Notes: generated by a model not told the origin, from the letters alone. A DNA stretch of 42,393 nt from Candidatus Fervidifonticultor quintus (GCA_031459535.1 JAVKIJ010000018.1:1-42393); one strand, 5' to 3'; shown: positions 10,300 through 24,031, counted from the stretch's first letter. Made by a program: numbers and translations.

Positions 10300-10690
10300 T
10301 AGGGTGGCCAATAGGGTAATAGCGGCCCCCCCGCCGATCTTCGATCCTAGGTGCCTTAGCGGCCCTCTGGCGGCCTTCTGCCGGGCCGGTCGACCCTACA
10401 CCCCGGGCCGGACACACCACCGCCCGTGTGGTCTGCTGGTCAGACCGCACCCCCAAGTTGGGACACTGAACGGTTCTGCGGGGGAGAAGGTATAGGCGAG
10501 GCCTTTGAGGGCCTCGCCGTTGGTCACATACCCAGCCCTTCATAGAACACTGTACTACGTACTACACTGTACGTTACGCCCGGAGGGCGTAACTCGTACG
10601 GCAGTGTACTACGTACGGCACTGTACGTTGTGCCTGTAAGGCACAACCCCTACGGCAATGTGCGATGTGTGTGTACTACGTCTGTACGAC
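10300..10690. repeat. Non-coding palindrome-array element, copy L (inverted homologue of 23360-23820)
   Basis: Palindromes GTTACGCCC-GGA-GGGCGTAAC (10573-10593) and GTTGTGCCT-GTA-AGGCACAAC (10627-10647), GGCGAGGCC..GGCCTCGCC (10495-10518); several 15-31 nt blocks are reverse complements of copy R. Confidence 0.9.
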
Positions 10691-10879
10691 ATTGTACGCC
10701 AGACTGCGGATCTCTCCGCGGGATGACAGGAATACGTAAGACCACGTGGTCCGTAGGATCGGGTACAGTACGAGGTAAGAGCCGTCCTCTACGGCGTAAC
10801 CCCCTGTTCTGCTAGGGATCCACTTAACCCTCACGTACTCTACAGAAACTGTAATGGGCTCGGCCGTCAGTCTATCCAC
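10676..10879 (-). CDS. Hypothetical protein (start uncertain)
   Basis: Lower-GC open frame VDRLTAEPITVSVEYVRVKWIPS...YNVVQT. Confidence 0.3.
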   Translation of the reverse strand: MDRLTAEPITVSVEYVRVKWIPSRTGGYAVEDGSYLVLYPILRTTWSYVFLSSRGEIRSLAYNVVQT

Positions 10880-11076
10880 GTCCTGTACCCCCACTTGAAC
10901 CACCAGTATAGATCTAAGCTTGGGCGACGTGCATGACTTGCTGGGGCTATGACCTTGCCAATCAGGGGCTTCGCCCCCCGCTCGGTGTCGAACAGCACTA
11001 CCAGGGGTCTGTCGTGAAAGACGAAATACAGGCACGTCACATCAAGACAGACGTCCACTGTCGGCCGATCACTCAT
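10867..11076 (-). CDS. Hypothetical protein, possibly a degenerate micro-paralogue
   Basis: MSDRPTVDVCLDVTCLYFVFHDRPLVVLFD...; beta-strand-rich like the array genes but lacks the H/H/C signature. Confidence 0.35.
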   Translation of the reverse strand: MSDRPTVDVCLDVTCLYFVFHDRPLVVLFDTERGAKPLIGKVIAPASHARRPSLDLYWWFKWGYRTWID

Positions 11077-11104
11077 GAGGCTCTCCCTGGCTGGTACACA
11101 CCTG

Positions 11105-11133
11105 TTGACAGGCCCAAGATCTTGTGGTAGTCT
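11105..11133 (+). promoter_or_regulatory. Sigma70-type promoter for the rightward cassette
   Basis: TTGACA (11105-11110), 17-bp spacer, TGg-TAGTCT (-10 at 11128-11133); ATG 7 nt downstream at 11140. Confidence 0.75.
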
Positions 11134-11139
11134 GTGCTC

Positions 11140-11958
11140 ATGGACCAACCTGTATGCGGCAAGTGTGGGTCGGAGCTCCTGTTAGACGCAGACTCTCCTG
11201 CGGCTCGCAGGAACCAGCCACGTCTTTGGCGTTGGTACTGCTGGAAGTGTGGGTGGGATACCTACACGGCCGTGCAGCTTGAGCGGTGGCACTGCTGGAA
11301 GTGCGGGTGGGATACCGACAGGGGGGCCAGCAAGGAGGTAGGCCAGGGTGAGGAGTCTCGCTGCAGCGATCATGAGTTGGGCGTTCGTCGCGGTCGTCGC
11401 AGACAACGAAAGCGCGCCGCAGTACCACACCGCGCCGACACGCGAGGCGTGCGAGGAGGCGCGACGGCTTCTCGAGGAAGCCACGCAGCCGGCCCGCGCC
11501 GCGTACGACTTCCCCTACGGGCAGGTCTACACGTCGGCGTGCTACCCGACGCGGGAGTAGGCCATGCGCGTCTACATCGCGGGAGTCTACGAGGACCGCA
11601 ACGAGTTGCGAAGGGAGCTCGAGGAGGCGGTGCGGCTGCTCGGGCTGCACGGACGGCTCGAGATCGTCAGCCGCTGGCTCCACCGCGACGGGGAACCGCC
11701 GCCGGAGGCGTGGATCGACCGCGAGTTCGTCGACCTCGACGCACGGGAGCATCGGATCGCCGTAGAGGACGTCCAGGACATCCAGAGCGCGGACGTGCTG
11801 GTGCTCGACACGCGAAGCCGAGCGCTGCGGGGCGGACGCGAGGTCGAGTACGGCTTGGCGCTCGCGCACAAGCTCCCCGTCGTTCGGGTCGGTCCGGCTC
11901 GGAACATCTTTCACGGGCTGGCCTCCTACGCCTGCGAGGACCTCATCGGGGCGCTTGA
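11140..11958 (+). CDS. Zinc-ribbon protein with duplicated RW[YH]CWKCGWDT motif (only the first ~70 codons look like a real domain)
   Basis: CGKC plus two CWKC; the rest of the frame is low-complexity and overlaps two better ORFs. Confidence 0.5.
   Translation: MDQPVCGKCGSELLLDADSPAARRNQPRLWRWYCWKCGWDTYTAVQLERWHCWKCGWDTDRGASKEVGQGEESRCSDHELGVRRGRRRQRKRAAVPHRADTRGVRGGATASRGSHAAGPRRVRLPLRAGLHVGVLPDAGVGHARLHRGSLRGPQRVAKGARGGGAAARAARTARDRQPLAPPRRGTAAGGVDRPRVRRPRRTGASDRRRGRPGHPERGRAGARHAKPSAAGRTRGRVRLGARAQAPRRSGRSGSEHLSRAGLLRLRGPHRGA
11348..11560 (+). CDS. Small, possibly exported protein
   Basis: AGGAGG RBS; hydrophobic N-terminus; TREACEEAR...SAC two-Cys pattern. Confidence 0.55.
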   Translation: MRSLAAAIMSWAFVAVVADNESAPQYHTAPTREACEEARRLLEEATQPARAAYDFPYGQVYTSACYPTRE

Positions 11959-11983
11959 GTGGATAAGCCAGCGTCTACCGTGA
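11564..11983 (+). CDS. Nucleoside 2-deoxyribosyltransferase-like / nucleotide N-glycosidase
   Basis: MRVYIAG, EDVQDIQSADVLVL, GGREVEYGLALA, NIFH. Confidence 0.8.
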   Translation: MRVYIAGVYEDRNELRRELEEAVRLLGLHGRLEIVSRWLHRDGEPPPEAWIDREFVDLDAREHRIAVEDVQDIQSADVLVLDTRSRALRGGREVEYGLALAHKLPVVRVGPARNIFHGLASYACEDLIGALEWISQRLP

Positions 11984-12453
11984 GGCAGCGTGATCCTATC
12001 ACGGGCGGCGAGAAGGATGTCAAGCTGGCCCGCTACGATCTCCTGCCCGACAGTGTCACGACGCTCCTCACCGCGGGGTTCAGCGATCTCTGGGCGTCGC
12101 TGGACGTGTTTTGGAACCATGGTGGTGGGCGCCCGGAGCTGGTACGGGTGGGGTTAATCCTGGCCTTCGCGCTGGGGCCTGGGTGGCCGACGCGACTGGC
12201 CGAGGTCTTCGGCTGGGGCGCGGGGAAGTACGCCCCGCGGAACTGGGAGCGCGGGTACCCGTGGAGCTGGGCCTACGCCGCGCTCCGACGGCATATCGCC
12301 GCCTGGCTGGCGGGAGAACCCGACGACCCGGAGAGCGGGCTGCCGCACCTGGCGCACGCGCTCTGGCACGTCGTGGTCCTCATGCACTTCCTGGGTCGCT
12401 ACCGGGAGGGGGATGACCGGCCGCAACCGAACCTCACGACGGCGCCGTCGTAG
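11980..12453 (+). CDS. dATP/dGTP diphosphohydrolase domain protein (DUF5664-like)
   Basis: TGGEKDVKLARYDLLP, GAGKYAPRNWERG, AALRRH, DPESGLPHLAHA; GTGA overlap at 11980 (alternative start 11959). Confidence 0.85.
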   Translation: MRQRDPITGGEKDVKLARYDLLPDSVTTLLTAGFSDLWASLDVFWNHGGGRPELVRVGLILAFALGPGWPTRLAEVFGWGAGKYAPRNWERGYPWSWAYAALRRHIAAWLAGEPDDPESGLPHLAHALWHVVVLMHFLGRYREGDDRPQPNLTTAPS

Positions 12454-12676
12454 CATCCTCGCCCAGCTCCGGCGGGCCTTTCGCCACCAGCAGACCGACC
12501 CCGCGCCTGCGCGGTTATGGATCGCCGCCTCCGATGAGCACTTCTCTACCCCGCCGGCCCACCAGCACCACGACGTGCTGCCCCCGGTCCAGGACGGCGG
12601 TCCGCTCGCCCCGAACCTCATCGTGTGTAGCGGCCAGGCCCACCGCCTGGCCCTCGACCTCAAGGACGACACGTGA
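12413..12676 (+). CDS. Hypothetical protein
   Basis: ORF in the operon; stop overlaps the next GTG start. Confidence 0.5.
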   Translation: MTGRNRTSRRRRRSILAQLRRAFRHQQTDPAPARLWIAASDEHFSTPPAHQHHDVLPPVQDGGPLAPNLIVCSGQAHRLALDLKDDT

Positions 12677-12960
12677 GGATCCGCCCCTTCCGGTTGCGTA
12701 GGCTCTATATCCTGCCTGGCGTCCTGGTCTACGTGCGGGTGGTCCCGCGGGAAGACCTCGAGGGCGACAGCGGGTGGTGGGAGTACGACGACACGGCCTC
12801 GGCGGGCGTGATCTCCATTGCCCGGGACCTCTCGCTGGCCGAGCGACGCTACGTCCTGCTGCACGAGCTCCAACACGCCCTCGTGGACATCCTCGACCAG
12901 GCTATTCTCCAGAACGTGTGCCGGCCTATTGTCGAGGTCCGACGGCGACGGCGGCGGTAG
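12673..12960 (+). CDS. Minimal HExxH zincin-like protein (ImmA/IrrE-like)
   Basis: GVISIARDLSLAERRYVLLHELQH. Confidence 0.7.
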   Translation: MRIRPFRLRRLYILPGVLVYVRVVPREDLEGDSGWWEYDDTASAGVISIARDLSLAERRYVLLHELQHALVDILDQAILQNVCRPIVEVRRRRRR

Positions 12961-13141
12961 AGAGACCAACCAGCAAGCAGTCCCGCAGCATGAGTACGAC
13001 CTTGGTGTTACGAGGGACCTCAGGCGGTGGTGGTGTGGCCTCTAGGACGCCGTGACCGTGTAAATAGACGCGCCACCGGGTGCTGCCGGACTCAAGCCGG
13101 ATGAGGAGGTGGATGTAGCGTCGCGGTCCATCGTAGCTCAC
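12926..13141 (-). CDS. H-H-C micro-paralogue 1
   Basis: HLLIRL...RVYLHGHG...VVLMLRDC; GTGA-coupled to the upstream gene. Confidence 0.75.
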   Translation of the reverse strand: MSYDGPRRYIHLLIRLESGSTRWRVYLHGHGVLEATPPPPEVPRNTKVVLMLRDCLLVGLSTAAVAVGPRQ

Positions 13142-13323
13142 TGTGTACAGTCCCCCAGCGTGAGCATGACCCTGGCGTCGCTGGGGACCCGTGGCGGCGA
13201 TGTAGCCTCGAGGCAGAAGTCGTTCTCTAAGCTGCCGTTACAGTGTAACCAGACGCACCACCAGTCGTGACTGGACAAGACCGTGATGAGGAGGTGGTGG
13301 CGTGGCTGTCCGTAGTAGCTCAT
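13138..13323 (-). CDS. H-H-C micro-paralogue 2
   Basis: HLLITV...CVWLHCNG...VMLTLGDC; ATGA overlap. Confidence 0.75.
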   Translation of the reverse strand: MSYYGQPRHHLLITVLSSHDWWCVWLHCNGSLENDFCLEATSPPRVPSDARVMLTLGDCTQ

Positions 13324-13487
13324 AGCGTACAACCATCCTCCAGTGTCAGCGTGATCTCCGCGTGGTCGAGGATCCCCGGTGGTGGCGGGGCCCACTGGCT
13401 CGGCTCGACGCGGCCGTTGCGGTGAAGCCAAAGACGCCACCAGCCCACGTCGGACACGATGTAGACGTCCAGGTGCTGCCCCTTCAC
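13320..13487 (-). CDS. H-H-C micro-paralogue 3
   Basis: HLDVYIV...RLWLHRNG...ITLTLEDGC; GTGA overlap. Confidence 0.75.
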   Translation of the reverse strand: MKGQHLDVYIVSDVGWWRLWLHRNGRVEPSQWAPPPPGILDHAEITLTLEDGCTL

Positions 13488-13714
13488 GATCGACGCTCTT
13501 TGCACCGACAGACCCGTAACGTCAGGTGGATTTCTGCGTTGTCGAGGAGCTGTGGTGGCGCCTGCCACCTGGTTCCTACACCACCGCCCAGCGGGCCGCC
13601 GGAGTGGAGCCAGAGGAAGCTCCGGCGACCGTTGTGGTAGATGGTCGCGAAGAGGTAGCTCTCCACGTGCGGCCCGGGTGGCGGCTCGATCTCAACGGTC
13701 GTGGGCGGCTTCAT
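13484..13714 (-). CDS. H-H-C micro-paralogue 4 (first His replaced by Tyr)
   Basis: YLFATIY...FLWLHSGG...IHLTLRVC; ATGA overlap. Confidence 0.7.
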   Translation of the reverse strand: MKPPTTVEIEPPPGPHVESYLFATIYHNGRRSFLWLHSGGPLGGGVGTRWQAPPQLLDNAEIHLTLRVCRCKERRS

Positions 13715-13866
13715 CGGCTGTGGGCCCGTCGACAGGCTTCCAGGAAGCACGTGACGACCGCGTCTGGCGGGATGACCCGTTGCCGCGACGGCCAGATGAA
13801 ACTCGGGCCGACACATAGCACACCCACCCACCACCCGTCGACCTCTATGACCAGATGTGGTGTCAC
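13711..13866 (-). CDS. H-H-C micro-paralogue 5 (not in ORF track)
   Basis: VTPHLVIEVDGWWVGVLCVGPSFIWPSRQRVIPPDAVVTCFLEACRRAHSR; GTGA overlap. Confidence 0.7.
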   Translation of the reverse strand: MTPHLVIEVDGWWVGVLCVGPSFIWPSRQRVIPPDAVVTCFLEACRRAHSR

Positions 13867-14033
13867 CGCGCCAACCTCCGGTCGAACGCGCAGCTCTCTA
13901 GCGCGACGATCACAGCCCCACCCGCGTTGAGCTTCTCGAGGTTGGTCCAGACGCTACTGTCCCGGTGGAGCAGGACGTAGCCATCGTCCGACATGATATA
14001 GAGGTGCTGCGGCTCTTGAGATACGCCCGTCAT
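13863..14033 (-). CDS. H-H-C micro-paralogue 6
   Basis: HLYIM...VLLHRD...VIVALESC; ATGA overlap. Confidence 0.75.
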   Translation of the reverse strand: MTGVSQEPQHLYIMSDDGYVLLHRDSSVWTNLEKLNAGGAVIVALESCAFDRRLAR

Positions 14034-14215
14034 GGGCTGCGCTTCAGGTAGCACGGCCCCAAGAGGCACTCGTCGACGTAGACGAGGAAGGTCGCGTCAT
14101 GCAGGTCCGTCGGGCGCGGCCGCGTACATTCGATCATGGCGGTCGCGTGGAGCGCCGCGTAGACCTCTGTGGCGCGGCCCGAGTGGCTCCGTTTTATGAT
14201 GAGGTGTGTGCTCAC
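14030..14215 (-). CDS. H-H-C micro-paralogue 7
   Basis: HLIIK...AALHAT...FLVYVDEC; GTGA overlap. Confidence 0.75.
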   Translation of the reverse strand: MSTHLIIKRSHSGRATEVYAALHATAMIECTRPRPTDLHDATFLVYVDECLLGPCYLKRSP

Positions 14216-14457
14216 TTCTGGCAAGGATGCCATAGGATCACCCTCGTAGCCCCCGACGCGATCCTGTCACGTGGGGGCAGGCCGAGCAGGCACCGCTCCA
14301 GGTAGATGTCGACGCGCGTGTCCTCGCACACGTGCGCAAGGGTGGACCGGCCGATCTCCCACCGGCTCTCGGCCCCGTGCGCCACGCGGTGGATCGTCAC
14401 ACAGCCGTGGCCGTCGATGATCATGGAGAGATGGTTCCGTCCCTGTTGACTCGGCAT
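14212..14457 (-). CDS. H-H-C micro-paralogue 8
   Basis: HLSMII...VTIHRV...VDIYLERC. Confidence 0.7.
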   Translation of the reverse strand: MPSQQGRNHLSMIIDGHGCVTIHRVAHGAESRWEIGRSTLAHVCEDTRVDIYLERCLLGLPPRDRIASGATRVILWHPCQK

Positions 14458-14663
14458 GGTCCCTCGCAAGACACGATGACGCTGTAGCCGGGTTGTATGC
14501 GTCGGTGGGCAATGAGCGGCGCCTGAACGTGCGCGTGCGTGTGCAGCGCGACGCACAAGTAGAAGCCGTCTGCCTGGACGATCAGGTGAAGGTGTTTGGG
14601 CATAGATACGGTGACTCTGGAGCCTGGTCGGATGTGGCGGTGAAGGCGCTGGGCTTTGGTCAT
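14421..14663 (-). CDS. H-H-C micro-paralogue 9
   Basis: HLHLIV...VALHTH...VIVSCEGPC; ATGA overlap; N-terminal RHIRPGSRVTVS echoes its own RRIQPGYSVIVS. Confidence 0.7.
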   Translation of the reverse strand: MTKAQRLHRHIRPGSRVTVSMPKHLHLIVQADGFYLCVALHTHAHVQAPLIAHRRIQPGYSVIVSCEGPCRVNRDGTISP

Positions 14664-14806
14664 AGGGTGCATGTCCCGAGGATCACGTTGATGCGCATGC
14701 CCTTGTAGATCCTGGTGACCGCCGGCGGCCAGCCAAGACGCCCACCGATGTGGAGCGAGAAGGTGTACCCCGCAACGATCCCGAAGTAGATATGTTTGTG
14801 CCTCAT
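14660..14806 (-). CDS. H-H-C micro-paralogue 10 (not in ORF track)
   Basis: MRHKHIYFGIVAGYTFSLHIGGRLGWPPAVTRIYKGMRINVILGTCTL. Confidence 0.75.
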   Translation of the reverse strand: MRHKHIYFGIVAGYTFSLHIGGRLGWPPAVTRIYKGMRINVILGTCTL

Positions 14807-14854
14807 GGCTTAGGGGTGTAGGTGCAAGCCCCGAGGTGTACGACGAGGCGTATC

Positions 14855-15004
14855 CTAGGCGACAAGCAGTTTCCCGTCGTCGGTCGCCAGCACCACGAGC
14901 ACGTGCCAGTCGGCCCAGACAACCAGCCCGCCGGGCACCAGTTTCGGTTCTATGACCGCGCCCCGTCGAAGTGGCGTGCGCACGTTCCCCCACACTCGGC
15001 TCAT
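14855..15004 (-). CDS. Small hypothetical protein within the array (not in ORF track)
   Basis: MSRVWGNVRTPLRRGAVIEPKLVPGGLVVWADWHVLVVLATDDGKLLVA; ATGA overlap; lacks the family signature. Confidence 0.5.
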   Translation of the reverse strand: MSRVWGNVRTPLRRGAVIEPKLVPGGLVVWADWHVLVVLATDDGKLLVA

Positions 15005-15165
15005 AGCCTGCGGCGAGGGTTCAGCCTCACGGCGATCACGTCGCCCTCTAGGACCCGGCCGTTGGTGACGGTGATGACGGCGTCCGAGTTAAGCCAGACC
15101 ACACTGGCGCGGTACTCCGCCCGCTCGATCCAGAAGAATAGGTGCTGCTTCAGGGCTCTAGACAC
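15001..15165 (-). CDS. H-H-C micro-paralogue 11, degenerate (not in ORF track)
   Basis: VSRALKQHLFFWIERAEYRASVVWLNSDAVITVTNGRVLEGDVIAVRLNPRRRL. Confidence 0.65.
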   Translation of the reverse strand: MSRALKQHLFFWIERAEYRASVVWLNSDAVITVTNGRVLEGDVIAVRLNPRRRL

Positions 15166-15311
15166 GTGTACAGGTAGATCACAACCGCTGAGTTCTGGGC
15201 TGGATCTGCCGTGACGTGCATACCGACCCGCGCGTTAGCGTGGAGCACCAGGGCGTCCCCCCGCCTGTCTGGATCGACTGCGATGTAGAGGTGCTGGTTG
15301 TACTTCTTCAT
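15150..15311 (-). CDS. H-H-C micro-paralogue 12 (not in ORF track)
   Basis: MKKYNQHLYIAVDPDRRGDALVLHANARVGMHVTADPAQNSAVVIYLYTCLEP; GGAGG RBS. Confidence 0.75.
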   Translation of the reverse strand: MKKYNQHLYIAVDPDRRGDALVLHANARVGMHVTADPAQNSAVVIYLYTCLEP

Positions 15312-15334
15312 CCCCTCCCTCCAAATATGTCACT

Positions 15335-15469
15335 CTACCTCCCGCCAGTTATGTAAATGCGGATCTCGGCTCGTCGCCGCAGCCTGTAGGCCTTGCGGAC
15401 GGTCCCGTCCGACTCCAAGACCGCGAAGAACCGGTCGGCGATAAAGGCCAGGCACATCGGTGCACTCAT
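15335..15469 (-). CDS. Array subfamily B copy 1 (not in ORF track)
   Basis: MSAPMCLAFIADRFFAVLESDGTVRKAYRLRRRAEIRIYITGGR; ATGA overlap. Confidence 0.7.
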   Translation of the reverse strand: MSAPMCLAFIADRFFAVLESDGTVRKAYRLRRRAEIRIYITGGR

Positions 15470-15618
15470 TTCGGTGCGATCCCTCCAATCAGGTAGACGC
15501 GGATTGTGGCTAGTCGCCGCGGCCTGTAGGCCTTACGGACGACCCCGTCAGCGTACAGGCTTGCGAAGAACCGGCCGGCTGTAAAGTCCAAGGCCGGCAG
15601 TACGTTTATCCCACTCAC
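15466..15618 (-). CDS. Array subfamily B copy 2 (not in ORF track)
   Basis: VSGINVLPALDFTAGRFFASLYADGVVRKAYRPRRLATIRVYLIGGIAPK. Confidence 0.7.
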   Translation of the reverse strand: MSGINVLPALDFTAGRFFASLYADGVVRKAYRPRRLATIRVYLIGGIAPK

Positions 15619-15742
15619 CGTCGGTCAGGTAGACGTGGACCACGGCCCGTCGCCGTGGCTGGTAGTACTTGACGACGACCCCGTCAGCGTGCAGGCGCAC
15701 GGTAAAACCGCCTGCGACAAAGCCCAGGGCAGGCAGGCTCAT
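15548..15742 (-). CDS. Array subfamily B copy 3
   Basis: MSLPALGFVAGGFTVRLHADGVVVKYYQPRRRAVVHVYLTDG...; ATG overlaps the stop of the UDG fragment. Confidence 0.7.
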   Translation of the reverse strand: MSLPALGFVAGGFTVRLHADGVVVKYYQPRRRAVVHVYLTDGEWDKRTAGLGLYSRPVLRKPVR

Positions 15743-16182
15743 TCTAGTCTCAGCGCACGCCCGCGGGCACGGAGGATGTGGACGTCCCCCGCACCGACCA
15801 GGGCCTTGAGAGCCGTCCCGCCCAGCGCGACCACGACCTTGGGCTGGAGCGTGCGAATGCACTCCAGCAGGAGTCCCCGGCAGCAGTGGACCTCGTGCAT
15901 GGTCGGCGTGCGGTTCTGCGGGGCCGCGCACTGAACCGCGTTGGCCAGCGCCACGTCGGTTTCTGTAAACCCGGCTCGTCGTAGAAGCTCCCGAAGCAGT
16001 TGACCGGCCGGGCCCGTGAACGGACGCCCGCTCCTGCGGTCTTCGTCCTGGCCCGGCCGCTCCCCGACAACGAGCGCGAGCCCGGTCCACCCGTCGGGGA
16101 TCTCCGGCCCCATGAACGGGCGCTGGCAACGCCGCCAGGCCCCGCATTCCTGGCACTCGGGGCGGTGTTCGGCTCCCCGCAT
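15739..16182 (-). CDS. Family-4 uracil-DNA glycosylase, N-terminal fragment (lacks the HPA motif)
   Basis: CQEC...C Fe-S ligands, VVGERPGQDEDRRSGRPFTGPAGQLL, NAVQC, PKVVVALGGTA; ends at RARGRALRLE*. Confidence 0.88.
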   Translation of the reverse strand: MRGAEHRPECQECGAWRRCQRPFMGPEIPDGWTGLALVVGERPGQDEDRRSGRPFTGPAGQLLRELLRRAGFTETDVALANAVQCAAPQNRTPTMHEVHCCRGLLLECIRTLQPKVVVALGGTALKALVGAGDVHILRARGRALRLE

Positions 16183-16186
16183 GGGC

Positions 16187-16339
16187 TTATGATACCTCAG
16201 CCCGCTTCGGGGAGTAGAGCACCACCGCGGCGCGGTGGCCTCGGTGGTTCTCCAGCAGCTTGAGTCCAACGGCCAGGCTAGCCGCCCGGGCGTCCAGGCG
16301 GCACGTCCTACAGACGAGACGGACGCGCTTCTTCAGCAT
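16187..16339 (-). CDS. Small CxxC...HxxH zinc-binding protein (not in ORF track)
   Basis: MLKKRVRLVCRTCRLDARAASLAVGLKLLENHRGHRAAVVLYSPKRAEVS; AGGAGG RBS. Confidence 0.65.
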   Translation of the reverse strand: MLKKRVRLVCRTCRLDARAASLAVGLKLLENHRGHRAAVVLYSPKRAEVS

Positions 16340-16349
16340 CGCACCCTCC

Positions 16350-16708: not shown

Positions 16709-16723
16709 GGTTCTGTCACCTCC

Positions 16724-17066: not shown

Positions 17067-17069
17067 GAG

Positions 17070-17830: not shown

Positions 17831-17832
17831 TG

Positions 17833-18036
17833 TCACCCTACCCACAAGCTGTCACCCACAGGCCGGAGCCCCCGAAGGAGCTCGTGGAGCCGCTCTGTCG
17901 GTACGACGCGGGTGACGTGGGTGGTGCCACGCTCCCCAGGCTCGCGCCGCCACAGCGTGACGGCGCGGAGATCCGACCGGCCCGGCACCGGCCGGATCCA
18001 CACAGCACGTTGCAGGCATGGCGTGGTAAGCTTCAT
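17833..18036 (-). CDS. Hypothetical protein
   Basis: MKLTTPCLQRAVWIRPV...; ATGA overlap with the upstream stop. Confidence 0.6.
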   Translation of the reverse strand: MKLTTPCLQRAVWIRPVPGRSDLRAVTLWRREPGERGTTHVTRVVPTERLHELLRGLRPVGDSLWVG

Positions 18037-18356
18037 TGACGGTCTTCCTCCTTCCACGCCTCGAGGAGCGCCTCGAGGCTGACGGTTGGGTGATGGGCCG
18101 CGAAATGTGACCAGGCGTAGAGCGGGCCGTACGCCCGCACGTACGCCCGGTACGTAGCGACGAGCTCACGACGGTTCATCGGTACCTCCTTTCCCCGGCG
18201 CGGCGGCGTCGGGCTGTGGGGCGGGAAGCCTAAGCACGCCCCGTCTACACTGAACCTCACGCGGACGGCCCGACCACACTTCGGGCAGACCGCGAACTCC
18301 CCGGGGTCGACCCCGTAAGGGATCCCACCGCGGCCTGGCGCGCACCGTCTAGCCAT
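18033..18356 (-). CDS. Hypothetical protein (CPKC in N-half; internal RBS plus ATG at 18179)
   Basis: Single frame containing a second AGGAGG-ATG start (MNRRELVATY...). Confidence 0.55.
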   Translation of the reverse strand: MARRCAPGRGGIPYGVDPGEFAVCPKCGRAVRVRFSVDGACLGFPPHSPTPPRRGKEVPMNRRELVATYRAYVRAYGPLYAWSHFAAHHPTVSLEALLEAWKEEDRQ

Positions 18357-18669
18357 CGCCTTCTCCTCGCAAGAGCCGCTGGGCCCGACAGGCCCAGCAG
18401 GTCACTTCCTTCCCCACGCACAGGCACGGCGTGCCGGCGAGCTCGCGGACGAAGCGCCGGAACGCCCGAAGCTGCCGGCTGCCCTGCCCCGTGAAGAAGG
18501 CACGGACGTGTTGCCACTGCTCGCCCTCCACCACAGGCATCGGTGCCCCGTCCACGTCGTGGAGCTCGCTGGCGGCAACCTCCAGCACCTCGAGCAGGTA
18601 GTGCTCGAGGTCCATCCCACGGCGGTGGGCGTCAGCCCACAGGCGGCGGATCACGGGCGGGATCTTCAT
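18349..18669 (-). CDS. Hypothetical protein with C-terminal Cys cluster
   Basis: CLC...CWAC; RBS supplied by the third 42-bp repeat. Confidence 0.65.
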   Translation of the reverse strand: MKIPPVIRRLWADAHRRGMDLEHYLLEVLEVAASELHDVDGAPMPVVEGEQWQHVRAFFTGQGSRQLRAFRRFVRELAGTPCLCVGKEVTCWACRAQRLLRGEGDG

Positions 18670-18713
18670 CGCCTACACCTCCGGCTGATAGGAGTCGGGT
18701 GTGTAGATCATCG
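18667..18713 (-). repeat. Third copy of the 42-bp mini-ORF unit
   Basis: catcgcctacacctccggctgataggagtcgggtgtgtagatcatcg; ORF MIYTPDSYQPEV* at 18673-18711. Confidence 0.9.
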
Positions 18714-18908
18714 CGGAGCCCCCGCTCTGAGGACCGTCAGCGCCGCACGCAGCTCACGCCGGGCGTCGCGCAGCCTCACAGAGACGTCGCTCAGTGGACC
18801 GCGCGGTAAACGGGCTTGTTGCCGCATCTGCTCGACTTCCTCGCTGATCCGCTGCGCCAGCTCAGCGACGTCCGCTGTGGTGTTGATAAGCTCCTCAACA
18901 AGATTCAT
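18708..18908 (-). CDS. Small coiled-coil protein
   Basis: Heptad-like VAELAQRISEEVEQMRQQ; GGAGGTG RBS. Confidence 0.65.
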   Translation of the reverse strand: MNLVEELINTTADVAELAQRISEEVEQMRQQARLPRGPLSDVSVRLRDARRELRAALTVLRAGAPR

Positions 18909-19488
18909 CCAGCCACCTCCCTAGCAGCCGCGCCCGGACATCCACCGGGACCGCGGCCAGGTCTTTGTAGGGGTACACGGTCACCAGCCGGGCCAGCGGC
19001 AGCGCGTGGAGCACGGACCGCGCCAGCTCGGCGGTGTCCGTGTCCACGACCACTACGACCCGGCCCACCGCCCGCGCGCGCAGCGCGGTCAGCGCCTCCC
19101 GGTTGACGGCCGTCCCCATGGTCGCGATGCCTAGGGCGCCGGCCATCGCCGCAGCCAGCGCGTCCAGCGGCCCTTCCACCACGCACGTTAGCCGGATCGG
19201 CGTGGTGGGGGCGACTACGACCAGGGCCGGTCCGCGCTCGGTGGCCGCGCTGACGTACCGAGGCTCCTGGCCGGCCAACGCCCGGGCCTGCCAGTAGCCC
19301 GGGACCGTGGTCGGGATCACGAGCCGCAGCCCGTCCCGGCACTGGGCCGCGTACCAGCCGTGATCCCGGGCCAGCTCCGGATCGAGACCGCGCTTGCGGA
19401 GGTAGGCTCGGGCCTCCTCCCAAGCGGCCGGGTCGCGCCGCGGGGTCGCACGACGACGCTCAATGGGCGGGTAAGGCCGCACCATCAC
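18895..19488 (-). CDS. DnaG-like primase (Toprim), without N-terminal Zn finger
   Basis: AYLRKRGL, RLVIP, YWQAR, PRY, VVEGPLDALA, ATMGT, VVVVDTD, YKDL. Confidence 0.8.
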   Translation of the reverse strand: MMVRPYPPIERRRATPRRDPAAWEEARAYLRKRGLDPELARDHGWYAAQCRDGLRLVIPTTVPGYWQARALAGQEPRYVSAATERGPALVVVAPTTPIRLTCVVEGPLDALAAAMAGALGIATMGTAVNREALTALRARAVGRVVVVVDTDTAELARSVLHALPLARLVTVYPYKDLAAVPVDVRARLLGRWLDESC

Positions 19489-20627
19489 GACCGATACACG
19501 AACCGAAGGTTCTTCTTCTGGAGATCTGTGTAGATCTCCTGAGCCTTTTGGCGGAGACGCTCCAACGTCTCCGCGTTGAACTCTGGAGCGTCAACGAAGT
19601 CCTGTAGCTCGGCCCCCAGCATCAGCACGGCTAGGACCGCCAACGTCTTCTCGTTCGTGGGGTCCTCCCGCATCATGGTGTAGAGGCGCTCCGGCAGCGC
19701 GGCACGGAGCGCTTCATCACGCTGCCAGAGCAGGCGAGGCAGCAGGTCCAGTAACTGCCCAGCCGAGGCAACGCGGAGCGCCGCCTCCCAAACGTCACTC
19801 GTGGTGACCGAGCTCTGCAGCCGCTTCACCACCTCGGCGACCACGTTGTCCGGGAAGAGAGCCCGGACTAACACCTCTTGGTGCCACTTCGAGAAGACGA
19901 GGTCCGGCCGGCGCTGGATCCACCGGCCGAGGTAGGCGAAGGTGCGCTTCGAGACCACCCGGGCCGGCCGCCGAGCCGGGCGGCTCCCGACGAGCCCCTC
20001 TGCCAACCACTTGAGCGTGGGGAGAGACTCCTCGACGTCCGCCTGCTCCCGCCCTGGCTCCGGGTAGTTGAACCAGAGCATGCGGTTGACGACGAAGTCC
20101 GGCAGGGGCCGGACAAACTCGTTGGCTAGGGCGAGCATTCGGACGCCCGGTTGGAGCCGGTGCCCGTGACATTCCCTTGACGTACACAGGGAGGCGATGG
20201 GTGTGATCACCTCCCCCTCGGCCTTGTCGAACTCATCCAAGACCCACAAGACCGGATCGTCTTGGTTGTCCGACCAAGGCCAGCCCGGCGGGCGCGAGTA
20301 GGAGGTAACGAGCGCTTCACGGCGGCGGCGGTCCTGTTGCCGCCAGGGCGGGACCAGGACCCCGCCCAGCTCCCACCAGGGCAGGGATTCGAGGATCGTC
20401 ACCTGGAGCCGCCAGCCCAGCTCGTGAGCGAGCTCCTCGGCCAGGTGGTTCTTGCCCACCCCGACATCCCCCAGGAGCAGGGGGATGCCAAGATCCTGGC
20501 CCGGCCCGCCGTCGATCAAGGCTGCCCGGACCAGGTCCTTGATCACCTGACGGTAGGGCGGCCGGGGCTCTTCCGGCGCCGCGGCCGCCTCGGTGGGCTT
20601 CTCGCTCTCAGCTTTCTTCTTACCCAT
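19485..20627 (-). CDS. MoxR-like AAA+ ATPase
   Basis: Walker A GDVGVGKN, Walker B VLDEFDKA, LALAN, NRM arginine finger; adjacent to a VWA gene. Confidence 0.85.
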   Translation of the reverse strand: MGKKKAESEKPTEAAAAPEEPRPPYRQVIKDLVRAALIDGGPGQDLGIPLLLGDVGVGKNHLAEELAHELGWRLQVTILESLPWWELGGVLVPPWRQQDRRRREALVTSYSRPPGWPWSDNQDDPVLWVLDEFDKAEGEVITPIASLCTSRECHGHRLQPGVRMLALANEFVRPLPDFVVNRMLWFNYPEPGREQADVEESLPTLKWLAEGLVGSRPARRPARVVSKRTFAYLGRWIQRRPDLVFSKWHQEVLVRALFPDNVVAEVVKRLQSSVTTSDVWEAALRVASAGQLLDLLPRLLWQRDEALRAALPERLYTMMREDPTNEKTLAVLAVLMLGAELQDFVDAPEFNAETLERLRQKAQEIYTDLQKKNLRFVYRS

Positions 20628-21819
20628 CTTCCCCCTCCTTCTCGTTCTTCGCCGCCTTCCAGACAACCACCCCGGCGCTGGGCGGCGGCGTCTGCCCGTC
20701 CGGGTCGACAATCACCCACCAGTCCCCGCCCGGGTGCTCCTTAGGCCACCCGTCACCTGGGTAGCCATCGGTCACCCACACAGCGGGGACGCCCGCGCGC
20801 CGCTGCGTCGCCGGCGGCAGGAAGCACGTCCCGCCGCCGCCGATTCGTGCGATGACCTCCCGGACGGTCGAGACGTCCGAGCGGTCGACCACGACCGTGT
20901 CGGTGCTGAAGACCAGCACCCGCACACGGCGCAGCGGCTTTTCGTCCAGGGCCGCCACGGCCGCGGCGACCGCCTCGTCCGTGATCGACCCGGAGACGTC
21001 CAGGATCAGGTCGAGATCGAGGCTCTTTCTCTCGGCCCCGATCCCAAAGCAGTCGGGCAGCGCGGCGTGTTCTCGCCAGACGACCGGACGCGGCTCCCAC
21101 GCTGCGTGCCCGCGCAGCAGCCGCACCAGCACCCACACCCAGGGCGGCGGCGGGGCCTGGTCGACACCGCGGCCCCAGCCTGGATCGACCCAGGCTTGCT
21201 GTGTGAAGTGCTCGTGGGGGTAATCCCCGGCGGTGCTGGCCCGGGCGATGGCTTCGGCGAGCGCAATCACCCCGCCGGGCGAGATGTCGGGCTGCGCCCC
21301 GCAGGGGTGCGCCCCCGCGTCGCACTGGCCGAGTCCGCCACACCGCTGTGCGGCGTCGTCGTCGTTCTGCCCCGCGCCGGCACCGCAGAGTTGCGGCGGG
21401 CGGTTTCGCAGGGCGTGGTAAGCGGGGACCACGCCCATCGGCGGGAGCCCGAGCCGCTCGAAGGTGACCGACCCGGGGACGAGCTCGGGCAGGTGTGGGA
21501 GGTGGTGGTGGATCACCGCGTCGCTGGCCAGGTTGAGTGTCAGCGGATCCACCGGGCCGTCCCGGCGGAGCTTCCGGGCCAGCAGCGGGTAGCCCATGAG
21601 CCAGTGGTTGACCTCATGCTCAAGTATCCCCGCCCGGACGCGGTCGTCCCGGGCGTCCCACGACGAGCGGGGGATCCAGATCGTCTTGCTGTCGAAGTCG
21701 GTCGCGGCGGCGAAGCCGTCGACCGGCTCCGGTGTGTACTTGATCTCGAAGCCTTCTAGCGCCCGCCGGACGTACTCCGGCAAGGCGCTGGTGGGGACGA
21801 ACGGCCTTTCGACACTCAC
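20620..21819 (-). CDS. HExxH metallopeptidase plus VWA domain protein (DUF2201-like)
   Basis: AAATD, ILEHEVNH, NLASDAVI; MIDAS motif ILDVSGSI, GGGGT, VWVTDG. Confidence 0.85.
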   Translation of the reverse strand: MSVERPFVPTSALPEYVRRALEGFEIKYTPEPVDGFAAATDFDSKTIWIPRSSWDARDDRVRAGILEHEVNHWLMGYPLLARKLRRDGPVDPLTLNLASDAVIHHHLPHLPELVPGSVTFERLGLPPMGVVPAYHALRNRPPQLCGAGAGQNDDDAAQRCGGLGQCDAGAHPCGAQPDISPGGVIALAEAIARASTAGDYPHEHFTQQAWVDPGWGRGVDQAPPPPWVWVLVRLLRGHAAWEPRPVVWREHAALPDCFGIGAERKSLDLDLILDVSGSITDEAVAAAVAALDEKPLRRVRVLVFSTDTVVVDRSDVSTVREVIARIGGGGTCFLPPATQRRAGVPAVWVTDGYPGDGWPKEHPGGDWWVIVDPDGQTPPPSAGVVVWKAAKNEKEGEDG

Positions 21820-21926
21820 AATCTCACCTCCTGGTGGGGACGAGGCAATCCTCCAGCAGGACTGCAACACGGTCGGCGGGGAGGACATTCACACGGAGCT
21901 AGTCTTTCTAGTAGGAGCGGTGGTTG

Positions 21927-22160
21927 TCAAGAGGGAATTTCTCCCGGCGGCGCCTGGGCTAGGAGCTCGCCGCGGAGCGGGTCGAGCTCCGCGTCAAGCG
22001 CCGCCGTCAGCTGGGCGGCTTCTTGCAGCATCTGCTGGTAACCGCCACGGTCGCCCGTGGCGGCGGCCAGCGCCGTCGCGTAGAGCGCCGTGGACAGCGC
22101 TTGGGCGACCACGGCAGCCCTGGAAGCGGCACGGACGAGCTCTGACTCGTTCGCCGTCAT
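21927..22160 (-). CDS. Hypothetical helical protein
   Basis: Clean 77-aa ORF in the early operon. Confidence 0.6.
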   Translation of the reverse strand: MTANESELVRAASRAAVVAQALSTALYATALAAATGDRGGYQQMLQEAAQLTAALDAELDPLRGELLAQAPPGEIPS

Positions 22161-22221
22161 AGGTCACACCCCCCGTCCTTTCTGGCGGCGCCGGCCTTTC
22201 TGGCGGCGCCGGTGTCTGGAC

Positions 22222-22259
22222 AAAAAAAAAGGGGCCGTGCGCGTTTGACGCACGGCCCC
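22222..22259 (-). terminator. Rho-independent terminator
   Basis: Minus strand GGGGCCGTGCG-tcaaacg-CGCACGGCCCC followed by T9, just after the stop at 22267. Confidence 0.9.
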
Positions 22260-22266
22260 CACCGCG

Positions 22267-22725
22267 TTAGGCTACGGCCGTGGCGGCCGTAGCCGTCTCG
22301 CGGATTCGGACAAGTGCTCGAATCCTGGCCGTGGTACGGGCGTCGAGCCCCGCCCGCTTGGCGAGCGAGGCTATCGCCGCCTCAATGCGCTCCTCCGCCG
22401 ACTTGGGCGGAGGGATCAGGCCCAATGCTTCCCGGGCCTGTTTTACCACGGCCGCCCACTGGGCGCGCTCGTCCAGGCTCACGCCCCGGGCCAGGGCGTG
22501 GGCAACTACACACGCCTGCCCCCAGTTGGGGCAGGGCGTGCTGACGCCCTTCGGGACGAGTCCCAAGTCCCTAAGGGCACGGACGAGGGCCCTAGAGAAC
22601 GCCCCGCCGGGATTGACCCCGGCTAGGTCGTTCTCCGCCGCGTACGTCGACAGCGCCCGCGCCAGGCGCTCGGGCGCCCGCCGGGCGGCGGCGAGCGCCG
22701 CCCGCAGTTCCGACCTGTGATCCAT
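22267..22725 (-). CDS. First gene of the leftward arm, hypothetical
   Basis: 152-aa ORF with AAAGGGGG RBS and its own terminator. Confidence 0.7.
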   Translation of the reverse strand: MDHRSELRAALAAARRAPERLARALSTYAAENDLAGVNPGGAFSRALVRALRDLGLVPKGVSTPCPNWGQACVVAHALARGVSLDERAQWAAVVKQAREALGLIPPPKSAEERIEAAIASLAKRAGLDARTTARIRALVRIRETATAATAVA

Positions 22726-22944
22726 ACAGGAACCCCCTTTCTTTAGCGCCTAAGCATACTGCCCTCCCTATCCGGGTTGCGTTCCAGCGTCCGCGCCTAT
22801 CACCTATCCCCATCACCGGGGCAGCGCGTTCGCTGTGCCCCAACTGTCGCCTGCACCCTATGGGGAGTACTGGGGCCGGAATATCCCTAGCTAAGTCCGC
22901 GAAAAATAAGGCGAAAATAAGACTTAGCAGGTGTCGAGTACCGT

Positions 22945-23013
22945 TTGCTGAAACACGGGTTTCAGCGTGTTGCTGAAAGTGGGGTTTCAGCGAGTTGCTG
23001 AAACGCTGAAAGT
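22945..23013. repeat. 25-bp-period operator-like repeats GCTGAAA-N6-TTTCAGC
   Basis: TTGCTGAAA at 22945, 22970 and 22995; the first two are completed by TTTCAGC. Confidence 0.75.
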
Positions 23014-23271
23014 CCGGGCGTGCCACCCCAGGTACCGTGGTGTGGTCTGACCAGCAGACCAGCAGACCAGGAGAGAGGGACCGGGGGCCTGGGACACGGG
23101 GCCCCGGTTAGGTGACGGGCTGTGGCGCCGAACGACGCCGCAGGGGGGGACAAGAGGGGGGGTGACCTTCGCACCAACAGTACCAGCCGTACCAACCGTA
23201 CCAACCTCATCGACCGCACCAGACACGAGTCTGCTCCTATCCGGGCCTCACTACCGACCCGGGGGGGTCAC

Positions 23272-23300
23272 ATTATAGCCTAAAACGCTAATAAAATCAA
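23272..23300 (-). promoter_or_regulatory. Sigma70-type leftward promoter
   Basis: Minus strand TTGATT (23300-23295), 17-bp spacer, TATAAT (23277-23272) in an AT-rich patch. Confidence 0.7.
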
Positions 23301-23359
23301 CGACTTACACCCCGGGGGCTACGATGTCGGTTACACTTGGGGGTTACAACGTACAACAC

Positions 23360-23820
23360 CGTACTACGTAGTACAGTGTAGTAGGGTTGTGCCTGAAAGG
23401 CACAACGTACATAGCAGCTCTCCGTACACCACCGTAGGAGTTGTGCCCAAAGGGCACAACGTACAGTGTAGCTCGTAGTACATAGCCGGGGGGTTACGCC
23501 CGAAGGGCGTAACGTACAGTGTAGTACGTAGTACACTACCGTAGGGGTTGTGCCTATAAGGCACAACGTACAGTGTAGTACTAGGGGGCGAGGCCAAAAA
23601 GCCTCGCCCCTAACCACCGCCCCCGCAAAACCGTTCAGTGTCCAGGGTGGGGGGTGCTTGTGAAACTTTTCACGTATGTGAACTGCTACACAAGCATGAG
23701 GAGCGTGGCGTGTGGGGTCCTCTAGACCGGTACGCCCCTGTCGTAGATCCCGCTTCTAAGGCCCCTAGGAGCCTCTAGGATCGAAGATCTGGGGGTGGGC
23801 CGCTATCTACATAGCGACCC
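23360..23820. repeat. Non-coding palindrome-array element, copy R
   Basis: Four 21-nt palindromes at 23386, 23440, 23493 and 23547 (consensus GTTRYGCCY-NNA-RGGCRYAAC), each followed by GTACA; GGGGCGAGGC..GCCTCGCCCC hairpin at 23585-23610. Confidence 0.92.
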
Positions 23821-24009: not shown

Positions 24010-24031
24010 AGCGACAGAAACGCTTCCGCTC

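Follow-up and report, generated by a model that had tools for sequence, protein, structure and literature searches.

Paired mirror-image non-coding elements with short palindromic sites in an uncultured hot-spring phage

What do two similar non-coding elements do when they face each other across the early region of a phage genome? An uncultured hot-spring phage carries such a pair. In the window (the whole stretch of 42,393 nucleotides that was analyzed), copy L occupies 10319-10709 on the plus strand and copy R 23806-23350 on the minus strand, inverted and collinear. All reverse-complement blocks listed in an earlier note, made from the sequence alone, were present upon re-checking:

10551-10581 and 23505-23535, reverse complement, exact block (31/31)
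10619-10655 and 23539-23575, reverse complement, 34/37, the 3 differences forming the hairpin loop
10461-10484 and 23620-23643, reverse complement, 23/24
10336-10350 and 23775-23789, reverse complement, 15/15
10319-10328 and 23797-23806, reverse complement

Layout of the two copies

A global alignment of L (plus strand) with R (minus strand) bears out the view of the earlier note that the blocks are largely collinear. Identity extends over 255 of 392 columns and includes exact runs of 31 and 16 nt, the run of 31 being the longest. The match exceeds chance, and conservation is far patchier than uniform divergence predicts; a run of 31 was reached in 2 of 20,000 column shuffles of the alignment and the sum of the four longest runs in none of 20,000. 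Outside its own contig, the element had no match in the rest of the 3.1-Mb assembly.

Two earlier descriptions need correction. The copies align over ~390 bp, but the surrounding intergenic regions exceed 400 bp and span about 10139-11130 or beyond around L and about 22726-24030 or beyond around R. Likewise, the elements are associated with major operons, with PolA-nuclease-helicase genes running leftward from L and packaging/virion genes rightward from R, but both copies lie between divergent operons, so each heads two and not one. Furthermore, the block 10619-10655/23539-23575 pairs nonequivalent units because the core of the element is a 54-bp tandem array with 2.1 versus 4.1 copies.

Parts of each copy and their palindromes

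Each copy contains a box A, a box B, a GC hairpin (the hairpin that the earlier note had described as common to both), and tandem 54-bp units (2.1 in L and 4.1 in R):

10319..10350, plus strand, box A of copy L, ATAGCGGCCC...GATCTTCGATCCTAG, inverted repeat I7 with 23775-23806 (32 nt, 91%)
23775..23806, minus strand, box A of copy R, inverted repeat I7 with 10319-10350
10429..10451, no strand, short palindromic block TGGTCTGCTGGTCAGACC, inverted repeat I11 with 23039-23061 (23 nt, 96%)
10447..10491, plus strand, box B of copy L, core 10461-10484 = GGACACTGAACGGTTCTGCGGGGG, inverted repeat I6 (45 nt, 80%; core 23/24)
23613..23657, minus strand, box B of copy R, core 23620-23643
10495..10518, no strand, GC hairpin of copy L, 9-bp stem and 6-nt loop
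23585..23610, no strand, GC hairpin of copy R, 10-bp stem and 6-nt loop
10548..10709, plus strand, tandem units of copy L: L_u1 (10548-10601), L_u2 (10602-10655), and a degenerate third unit
23378..23592, minus strand, tandem units R_u1 to R_u4 of copy R, from TRF and unit alignment (model R1, 62-77 bits)
23361..23374, no strand, perfect 14-bp palindrome GTACTACGTAGTAC at the inner end of copy R

The 19-mer GATCCTAGAGGCTCCTAGG (23764-23782, minus strand) overlaps the inner edge of box A in copy R and is also present in the relative G001 and in other viral contigs. The 21-nt core pattern of box B had no other occurrence in the viral or genome contigs searched. The stem of the GC hairpin is shifted in R relative to L with pairing retained, and in L no T-run follows it on either strand. 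The TGGTCTGCTGGTCAGACC block, common to 10429-10451 and 23039-23061, does not follow the collinear order of the other parts.

TRF reports a period of 54 in both arrays, a spacing of about five helical turns, and counts 2.1 copies at 10551-10661 in L and 4.1 at 23361-23581 in R. Every full unit in L combines GTACTAC heptads, the invariant TGTACGTT, and a perfect 21-nt palindrome (10573-10593 and 10627-10647); model R1 scores there are 72.7 and 76.3 bits, against 11.2 bits (E, 0.36) for the third unit. Copy R, the units of which also contain the heptads, has perfect 21-nt palindromes at 23547-23567, 23493-23513, 23440-23460, and 23386-23406. Across all six, 54 of 54 stem cells pair, always in Watson-Crick fashion (G-U, 0/54), and 3 of the 9 stem positions have changed on both sides in a compensatory manner; the stems are kept while the loops differ.

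The heptads form the 14-bp palindrome GTACTACGTAGTAC, for which, at up to 3 mismatches, all nine matches in the window fall inside the two elements (expected, 0.38). The same holds for ACTGTACGTT at up to 1 mismatch (5/5; expected, 0.59) and for GTACTACG (7/7; expected, 0.43), and none of these counts was reached in 100 shuffles (0/100). We found no evidence for a coding role of the elements. A CRISPR-like array or repeat mimic finds no support: the sequence between the palindromes is conserved, and the assembly's 36-nt CRISPR repeat, on contig C106, is, by eye, unlike the units. None of 42 CRISPR spacers matched the window beyond 18 nt.

Each of the two regions has promoter-like sequences at both of its edges, all four being consensus matches only:

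10183..10212, minus strand, sigma70-like promoter TTGACG-18-TAGGGT, ~45 bp upstream of the PolA start
11105..11133, plus strand, sigma70-like promoter TTGACA-17-(TGg)TAGTCT (custom scan), predicted to read into the plus-strand genes at 11.3-13.0 kb
23300-23272, minus strand, sigma70-like promoter TTGATT-17-TATAAT, predicted to read into the minus-strand operon with VWA, AAA, and primase genes
24001..24009, plus strand, extended -10 element TGGTATAAT, predicted to read into the packaging/structural operon

The third of these lies within 23270..23309 (minus strand), the 40-mer with the highest AT content anywhere in the window (70%), which abuts copy R; copy L has no marked AT island. Arrays of sites exist in this genome and are confined to two control regions, where they lie between host-type promoter-like sequences. 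Their distance from the predicted sigma70-type promoters is 100 to 600 bp, which is unlike classical operators, and the sole close site is the perfect palindrome, 61 bp from the -35 of the promoter at 23300-23272. Weak outward promoter-like sites are found on the inner side of both arrays.

Layout in other phages

The search of related phages that the earlier note had recommended recovered the same heptad motif and twin layout in G001, which is 35% identical to this phage in PolA, 47% in TerL, and 53% in the portal protein. Its two inverted clusters of the GTACTAC heptad are 14.4 kb apart, one in a 2.4-kb non-coding region heading the virion operon and the other directly 5' of a Zn-ribbon-primase-UDG-PolA operon. 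Hence, the assignment of L to the polymerase/replication operon and of R to the packaging/structural operon recurs in G001. Here and in G001 alike, the heptads face away from the replication and virion operons; as read from the sequence, array polarity relative to these operons is kept in this distant relative. Within a cluster, the motif occurs in both orientations; in G001, the spacing is 9 to 10 bp, and the GTACTACGTAGTAC 14-mer occurs three times, within the two clusters. The G001 array on the replication side is preceded, at a distance of ~35 bp, by a predicted consensus promoter (TTGACA/TATAAT) that reads across the array into the replication operon. The cluster adjoining the replication genes (copy 1) also has, in its middle, the 40-mer with the highest AT content of the 56-kb contig.

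Clusters likewise precede the primase-UDG-PolA operon of L196. The polarity rule is not universal, because G002 carries two clusters in direct orientation, 6 to 8 kb from its primase gene; the PolA relatives G003 and G004 showed no cluster. Provirus G100 and a related contig, G099, have a predicted TTGACA...TACTAT promoter ~1 kb upstream of terS, with 20-bp palindromes made up of this heptad on its two sides. These two were retrieved by the motif search itself and are not relatives, so the resemblance may be coincidental. The position of arrays or palindromes by predicted promoters in G001, G100, and G099 suggests an operator-like geometry.

The 54-bp units are confined to this phage, G001 having units of its own that are common to its two clusters, and copies within one genome are more alike than copies across phages. 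This likeness implies exchange between the copies over evolutionary time and bears on the possibility that they are recombination arms, through which the 13-kb early region would be flipped either as a programmed switch or by occasional homologous exchange. The exact runs of 31 and 16 nt within inverted repeats and the fact that the primase-UDG and MazZ-M78 gene modules lie on different sides of the elements here and in G001 would fit such a role. However, the longest exact run is only 31 bp although the alignment spans roughly 390 bp, G001 has the same layout, and the scanned ORFs yielded no recombinase of the serine or tyrosine type. Moreover, the assemblies of the window and G051:C10 share the arrangement across L. 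No junction of the flipped form was reported, but the k=31 contigs break exactly at the 31-nt repeat, so that such a junction would be invisible in them. We consider inversion through these arms improbable, and a programmed inversion finds no support in either the ORFs scanned or the L junction.

The proposal that the motifs are under selection has fared better, in view of the patchy conservation, the compensatory stems with differing loops, and the persistence of the heptad and twin inverted layout at 35% PolA identity. Alternatively, the pair could be a neutral remnant: a promoter region would have been duplicated in inverted orientation long ago, and gene conversion would have maintained patches of likeness. 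This would account for patches of identity and for the different unit numbers of the copies. Conversion does not explain kept stems with differing loops, however; the motif is strongly confined to the elements; and the heptad, the box A 19-mer, and the twin layout persist at a distance at which neutral DNA would be unrecognizable. This is the least credible of the explanations considered here.

Candidate functions

We tentatively favor the view that the elements are DNA-level operator or enhancer arrays through which a candidate phage protein times two non-early operons. That they are docking arrays for a candidate phage DNA-binding protein is probable and is drawn from the same layout in the distant relative. 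A phage-encoded, sequence-specific, and probably dimeric protein would bind the heptads, the 21-bp palindromes, and boxes A and B, and the occupied arrays might assemble into a higher-order complex acting as an operator, roadblock, or enhancer. Such a complex would time the two large non-early operons against the early genes, which are transcribed the opposite way. We propose that the copies are inverted because a single type of polar module stands at the head of two divergent operons, and homogenization between the copies within a genome would keep them alike. The dyad-symmetric and tandem sites expected of an operator array are present in the 14-bp and 21-bp perfect palindromes.

The signal could instead reside in RNA. 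Lambda nutL/nutR and HK022 putL/putR act as RNA downstream of early promoters, and, as in those phages, two inverted box-plus-hairpin copies each lead into a major operon. A structured leader of this kind would be transcribed into both outward operons and modify RNA polymerase or RNA stability. Compensatory changes in the hairpins and the weak outward promoter-like sites on the inner side of both arrays are compatible with this, as is the G001 array, which follows a predicted consensus promoter and precedes the first gene, so that it is probably transcribed. Nevertheless, the two strands fold equally well (z, -4.43 and -4.14), no G-U pair marks a strand, and the loops are not conserved. The motif shared across phages is a spacer-less 14-bp palindrome, found in both orientations within a cluster, which is unable to fold into an RNA hairpin. 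Rfam gives no family at or above threshold, and there are no U-tract terminators (0 terminator-like sites with a GC stem and T-run in either region). Unlike nut and put sites, the signal here is palindromic and symmetric on both strands. It is best read as acting at the DNA level; a leader RNA is unlikely, and the antitermination RNA suggested earlier is, on the same grounds, not supported.

A close competitor, possible but doubtful, is a pair of origin-type sites. An origin-binding or replisome-organizing protein would bind the repeats, adjacent low-GC DNA and extrudable palindromes would melt with the aid of divergent transcription, and one copy would initiate replication while the other either also initiates or stalls a fork, switching replication from theta to concatemer mode. 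The repeated-site array expected of an iteron-type phage origin is present (54-bp units in 2.1 plus 4.1 copies and heptad clusters), repeat arrays adjoin the lowest-GC DNA (at copy R in the window and at the replication-side cluster in G001), the window, G001, and L196 each have a cluster beside replication genes, and the phage encodes RuvC-like and PD-(D/E)XK nucleases that could process stalled forks. Strict symmetry maintained by compensatory change suggests selection for a hairpin or cruciform, which fits origins better than operators. On the other hand, copy L lacks a marked AT island, the AT islands are explained as well by promoters, and in an unrelated provirus the same palindrome flanks a predicted promoter that lies upstream of terS. 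Pfam and PHROGs recognized neither an initiator nor a helicase loader among the ORFs scanned, many of which have no family. The GC-skew check suggested earlier gave a 1-kb profile without a clear turning point at either L or R.

Published accounts describe a precedent in SPP1, a 44-kb lytic siphovirus with two origins about 13 kb apart (PMC6316719; PMC3485210). There, oriL, which lies among the replication genes, and oriR, which belongs to the late region, both combine direct repeats with an AT-rich unwinding element and bind gp38, and fork stalling at gp38-bound oriR is proposed to trigger the concatemer switch (PMC6316719). The two phages share a pair of similar non-coding repeat elements about 13 kb apart, here with marked AT-rich DNA at copy R; one element accompanies the replication genes and the other falls in the late/virion region. 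A single protein would serve both sites (gp38 in SPP1, a candidate here). They differ in that SPP1 has direct repeats in place of palindromic heptads and perfect 21-nt palindromes. This phage also encodes a PolA of its own, while replication of SPP1 relies on host polymerases, and neither a gp38-like initiator nor a gp39-like loader was recognized in it; the likeness is one of layout, with no sequence similarity. Still more speculatively, a conserved polar origin/fork-control pair equivalent to oriL/oriR may exist in this uncultured high-GC hot-spring phage lineage. One candidate protein, for example the conserved small Zn-ribbon protein described below, would bind the heptads at both sites, start replication, and arrest the fork at the second site to yield concatemers, with the same complexes gating the divergent promoters. 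In that case, phages with their own PolA replisome would have evolved a two-site replication switch independently.

Returning to operator or enhancer arrays, two known systems are instructive. In phi29, arrays of p4 and p6 sites, at or near promoters and genome ends, lie between divergent early and late genes, and p6 complexes function in transcription control as well as in starting replication. The candidate arrays described here are likewise placed between divergently transcribed early and late genes, but at 100 to 600 bp from predicted promoters, and no p4- or p6-like protein was found. The omega protein of pSM19035, a small dimeric RHH repressor, binds contiguous 7-bp operator units in direct and inverted orientation upstream of several operons. 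Arrays of 7-bp units in both orientations are common to the two systems, whereas the heptad sequence differs and the spacing in G001 is 9 to 10 bp rather than contiguous.

Among about 60 ORFs of the window searched with Pfam and PHROGs, no HTH, RHH, or sigma protein was recognizable. A small Zn-ribbon protein (4799-4969, minus strand) matches generic zinc-ribbon families only. It is 41% identical (tblastn, 51 aa) to a G001 counterpart, which is encoded just downstream of the array in that phage.

Layout and conservation of the twin elements

The contig C49 (42,393 bp, ~69% GC), which makes up the whole window, belongs to a 3.1-Mb metagenome assembly and, judged by its predicted genes, is a tailed-phage genome. 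It is not a complete one, since the phage contig of a second assembly (G051:C10, 26,930 bp) adds 3,424 bp leftward of window position 1; no terminal overlap was found in the window. Its genes fall into four blocks.

Gene blocks of the phage
~24.0 kb to right end, again 1-3.2 kb, + strand: virion genes (TerL 27277-29001, portal 29661-31385)
10138 down to ~3.5 kb, - strand: replication operon (PolA, PD-(D/E)XK nuclease, DnaB-like helicase, RuvC-like, RNase H-like)
11.3-13.0 kb, + strand: short gene block (dATP/dGTP diphosphohydrolase-family domain, M78-like domain)
~22.7 down to 13.1 kb, - strand: long gene block (VWA, AAA, Toprim primase, UDG, many small ORFs)

The two elements, L and R, each lie between divergent operons. 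All the repeat blocks listed in the earlier note are present, and the copies are, as it described, collinear and inverted, with L on the plus strand and R on the minus strand running in the same order.

Components of the elements, in order
10319-10350 (L, +) / 23806-23775 (R, -): box A
10461-10484 (L, +) / 23643-23620 (R, -): box B core
10495-10518 (L) / 23610-23585 (R): GC hairpin
2.1 copies in L, 4.1 in R: tandem array of a 54-bp unit

The description of both copies as non-coding also looks sound. Between 10140 and ~11130 the GC frame plot stays flat, and a codon-usage caller placed no gene at 10094-11371 or 22726-24304. A coding reading of L was rejected, as the 133-aa ORF running through boxes A and B lacks codon-position GC bias and is broken by two in-frame stops in its R counterpart. 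When L and R were aligned, 255 of 392 columns were identical, and identity was concentrated in runs of 31, 16, 15 and 15; the longest run was matched in 2 of 20000 shuffles and the sum of the top four in none of 20000. That the pair is a neutral remnant seems to us extremely improbable.

The rest of the assembly held no further occurrence of the element. Box B was absent from the viral and genome contig collections and is unique to this phage, and searches of the phage collection with the DNA of either intergenic region gave no match. A 16-mer from the unit found scattered single matches only (27 viral loci and at least 120 genome loci), which we took as chance. The box A 19-mer GATCCTAGRGGCTCCTAGG (23764-23782), which does not recur in the rest of the window's assembly, is exact in seven viral loci representing five distinct sequences, one of them the 56-kb contig G001, and in one Solirubrobacterales contig; the sites are mostly intergenic. 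Plausibly, the TAGGAT within it, read outward, is an actinobacterial -10.

Promoter-like sequences, all of them consensus matches only, occur at the four edges of the elements, and the distance from array to predicted promoter ranges from 61 to 600 bp.

Promoter-like sequences
~45 bp before PolA: TTGACG-18-TAGGGT
11105-11133: TTGACA-17-TGgTAGTCT
23300-23272: TTGATT-17-TATAAT, within the window's most AT-rich 40-mer
24001-24009: extended -10 TGGTATAAT

Between the promoter at 23300-23272 and the first well-supported minus-strand gene (ATG 22725) lie ~540 nt of weak coding signal, and 22726-23226 holds three more repeat families.

Additional repeats
22945-23004: four overlapping CTGAAAC/GTTTCAG hairpins
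23049-23074: GACCAGCA, 3.2 copies
23173-23206: ACCAACCGT, 3.8 copies

In the same stretch, contigs of the public sequencing runs X1 and X2 fold back around the small palindrome TGGTCTGACCAGCAGACCA, with 23029 on one strand joined to 23069 on the other, at a depth comparable to that of the phage; either an artefact or a genuine snap-back form may explain them.

Palindromic units and the DNA-level signal

Every unit closes with a 21-nt palindrome that is perfect over its 9-bp stem and has 3 nt at its centre. Pairing is complete in the six units (54 of 54 stem cells), and three of the nine stem positions have changed on both sides (GT/AC to AC/GT, T-A to C-G). These changes amount to no more than two or three independent events, and the three bases at the centre vary freely; the pairing or covariation score of the stems was matched in none of 500 shuffles. 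All six units share an invariant TGTACGTT ahead of the palindrome, and five of them retain a TGTAC located 17 nt before it.

The units are made of the heptad GTACTAC. The 8-mer GTACTACG occurs seven times in the window (0.43 expected) and the 14-bp palindrome GTACTACGTAGTAC, allowing up to three mismatches, nine times (0.38 expected), in each case exclusively within the two elements; the copy of GTACTACGTAGTAC at 23361-23374 is perfect. Genome-wide, GTAC shows no avoidance (146 observed against 98 expected), and it is densest at 10-11 kb and 23-24 kb. A literature search for the 8-mer returned primer matches only. We did not adopt the unit as a sigma70 promoter (TTGTGC-17-TACGGY) because neither L unit has the final T of the -10, and the R unit R_u2 has no -10 at all.

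Several properties bear on whether these repeats work as DNA or as RNA. The L core (281 nt) folds equally on either strand (z of -4.43 and -4.14), none of the stem pairs of the 21-nt palindromes is G-U, both heptad orientations are present within one cluster, and the spacer-less palindrome GTACTACGTAGTAC cannot form an RNA hairpin. No Rfam family reached its gathering score in the window, and an E-value search of the two regions returned a single sRNA family at E 0.73; there are no tRNAs in the window and no terminator-like sites in the two regions. On these sequence grounds we conclude that the arrays act at the DNA level, and we regard an RNA leader as very unlikely.

The motif in distant relatives

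There is no close relative of the phage in the collections. One PolA homologue, P0002 on an 8.4-kb contig, is 73% identical, and the others are at most 42% identical; PolA as a single query in the viral contigs gave no match, and against the phage collection all 1003 records fell below 60% identity, the matches listed being Gordonia phages at 23-24%. A covariance model of the unit matched only this phage, the second assembly (G051) included. Self-comparison of 25 + 5 relatives' loci found no twin repeats within +/-10 kb of PolA except at locus L196, where clusters lie upstream of a primase-UDG-PolA operon.

The element that the earlier note described recurs in related phages only in part: the heptad, the twin layout and the box A 19-mer are found in G001, but box B and the 54-bp unit were not found elsewhere. 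G001 is an IMG/VR contig (identities of 35% for PolA, 47% for TerL, 53% for portal and 63% for the major capsid protein) with two inverted clusters of GTACTACG 14.4 kb apart, 11 copies at 37.02-37.23 kb and 5 at 22.29-22.68 kb, as well as three perfect copies of GTACTACGTAGTAC. Read in reverse, its order is that of the window: a leftward replication operon, a right-pointing heptad cluster, ~14 kb of other genes, a left-pointing cluster and a rightward virion operon. A consensus TTGACA/TATAAT promoter ~35 bp ahead of its replication-side array reads through that array, and the most AT-rich 40-mer of G001 sits between the array's halves.

Counter to this pattern, the two clusters of the relative G002 are directly oriented and lie 6-8 kb from its primase, and G003 and G004 carry no cluster. 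Locus L232 (PolA 41%) has other repeats ahead of PolA, CTAGG-rich and 60 bp long; within them ~100 bases (7419-7518) are N in the collection, and several small CGHLC...C..C ORFs lie on either side (6800-8150). Exact matches to GTACTACGTAGTAC were found at 49 viral loci, and chance probably accounts for most of these. In the provirus G100 and a related contig, G099, which are not relatives of the phage, 20-bp heptad palindromes flank a TTGACA...TACTAT promoter ~1 kb upstream of the small-terminase gene. This geometry resembles that of an operator at the head of a late operon, which we treat as a lead rather than proof because both contigs were found through the motif itself.

The pair is thereby shown to consist of polar arrays of palindromic sites that are under selection and keep their position and polarity ahead of the replication and virion gene modules.

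One candidate for the protein that binds the arrays is a 56-aa Zn-ribbon protein (4799-4969, -), which matches generic zinc-ribbon families only. It shares 41% identity (tblastn, 51 aa) with a protein whose gene directly follows the array in G001. Its supposed link to provirus G100 was dropped, as the two proteins weakly match phrog_5602 (E ~0.005) and lack pairwise similarity. A phage sigma factor was likewise rejected: an ORF of G002 has a weak Sigma70_r4 match (E 0.0025, below cutoff), with nothing similar in the window or G001. By eye, the ORF directly upstream of primase looks sigma-like in G002 (L249 4627-5175, -) and L196 (7572-8288, +), only the former having a Pfam match.

Possible roles of the pair and the phage population

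We infer that one phage-encoded dimeric protein binds both arrays and forms a higher-order complex; phi29 p4/p6, the omega repressor, lambda nut, HK022 put and the N4 hairpin promoters are systems with which the pair can be compared. We tentatively favour a role in the control of operon timing, as operator, roadblock or enhancer. A pair of origin-type sites is a somewhat unlikely reading that ranks close behind, and the two roles are not mutually exclusive. That the 21-mers are strictly self-complementary fits extrusion at an origin better than protein recognition, and an origin pair has a striking precedent in SPP1. That phage has two repeat-plus-AT-rich origins ~13 kb apart, at the replication genes and in the late region, with gp38 bound at both, and fork stalling at the second origin has been proposed to lead to concatemer synthesis (PMC6316719, PMC3485210). 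Like SPP1 with its ~13 kb spacing, the window has paired repeat elements on a replication side and a late or virion side. Two other features, the lack of a recognisable initiator and the promoter-flanking geometry in G001 and G100, fit regulation better. GC skew at 1-kb resolution gave no clear turning point.

That the copies serve as inversion arms is highly unlikely. Copies within a genome are more alike than between genomes, which implies exchange between them over evolutionary time; against inversion, the two assemblies agree on orientation at L, and the ORFs scanned included no recombinase. The k=31 contigs of the public runs end at the 31-nt repeat and would not reveal a flipped junction.

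Characterised control regions are very rare among uncultured phages. Here the element is clearly bounded, has a simple motif (GTACTAC/GTACTACGTAGTAC), keeps its layout across phages whose polymerases are only 35% identical, and stands in front of both the replication and the virion module. Through it one could look directly for the protein responsible for timing, or starting, replication and late expression in a lineage without a cultured member, and it allows a test of how general the two-origin logic of SPP1 is. The motif can also be used for locating control regions in related metagenomic contigs.

Public runs containing the window are labelled hot-spring metagenomes, with no RNA run among those listed: four from one study, which may be the source, and a small share in a second, whose run X5 had no contig over 10001-11002 or 23027-23527. 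In Logan contigs over 9500-24500, mean k-mer depth is lower inside the bracketed region than outside. In X2 it is 147 left of L, then 135, 132, 131, 124 and 103 (just left of R), and 153 right of R; the trend recurs in X1 and X4, with one figure per contig and all runs from one study. This is a weak hint of a one-way DNA process from R (packaging or replication) or of strain variation in the early region.

The same phage was also binned in G051, a species-representative genome of a different family in the same order, so host assignment by binning is unsafe. None of 42 spacers of the CRISPR array in the window's assembly (G000:C106:60594-63641; 43 repeats of 36 nt, repeat end GAAAC) matches the phage. 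Over window 1-23151, G051:C10 is identical at 1-14154 and 99% identical at 14056-20000, is ~230 bases longer across the small-paralogue region and has its end within the intergenic region on the R side.

A related second phage is present in X1, X2 and X4, deeper in X1, and the 73% PolA homologue may come from it; this second phage matches short patches (window 12211-12905, 16213-20341) at 80-95% identity and differs in gene order, with many joints and with substitutions clustered at 12243-12859. Two length polymorphisms occur in the population: the main X2 and X4 contigs omit a 69-nt stretch (16540-16610), and X1 lacks one 18-nt unit of a tandem repeat (at 22177). The ORF at 11959-12453 (+) matches the N-terminal domain of dATP/dGTP diphosphohydrolase (PF18909, E 4e-27; phrog_801), a family linked to phages with 2-aminoadenine in place of adenine. 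Small paralogous ORF or repeat arrays lie at 11140-11323, 13040-13297, 15340-15726, and 17742-17831 and 18667-18713, and include a duplicated Cys-rich motif, RW[YH]CWKCGWDT, with copies 54 bp apart.
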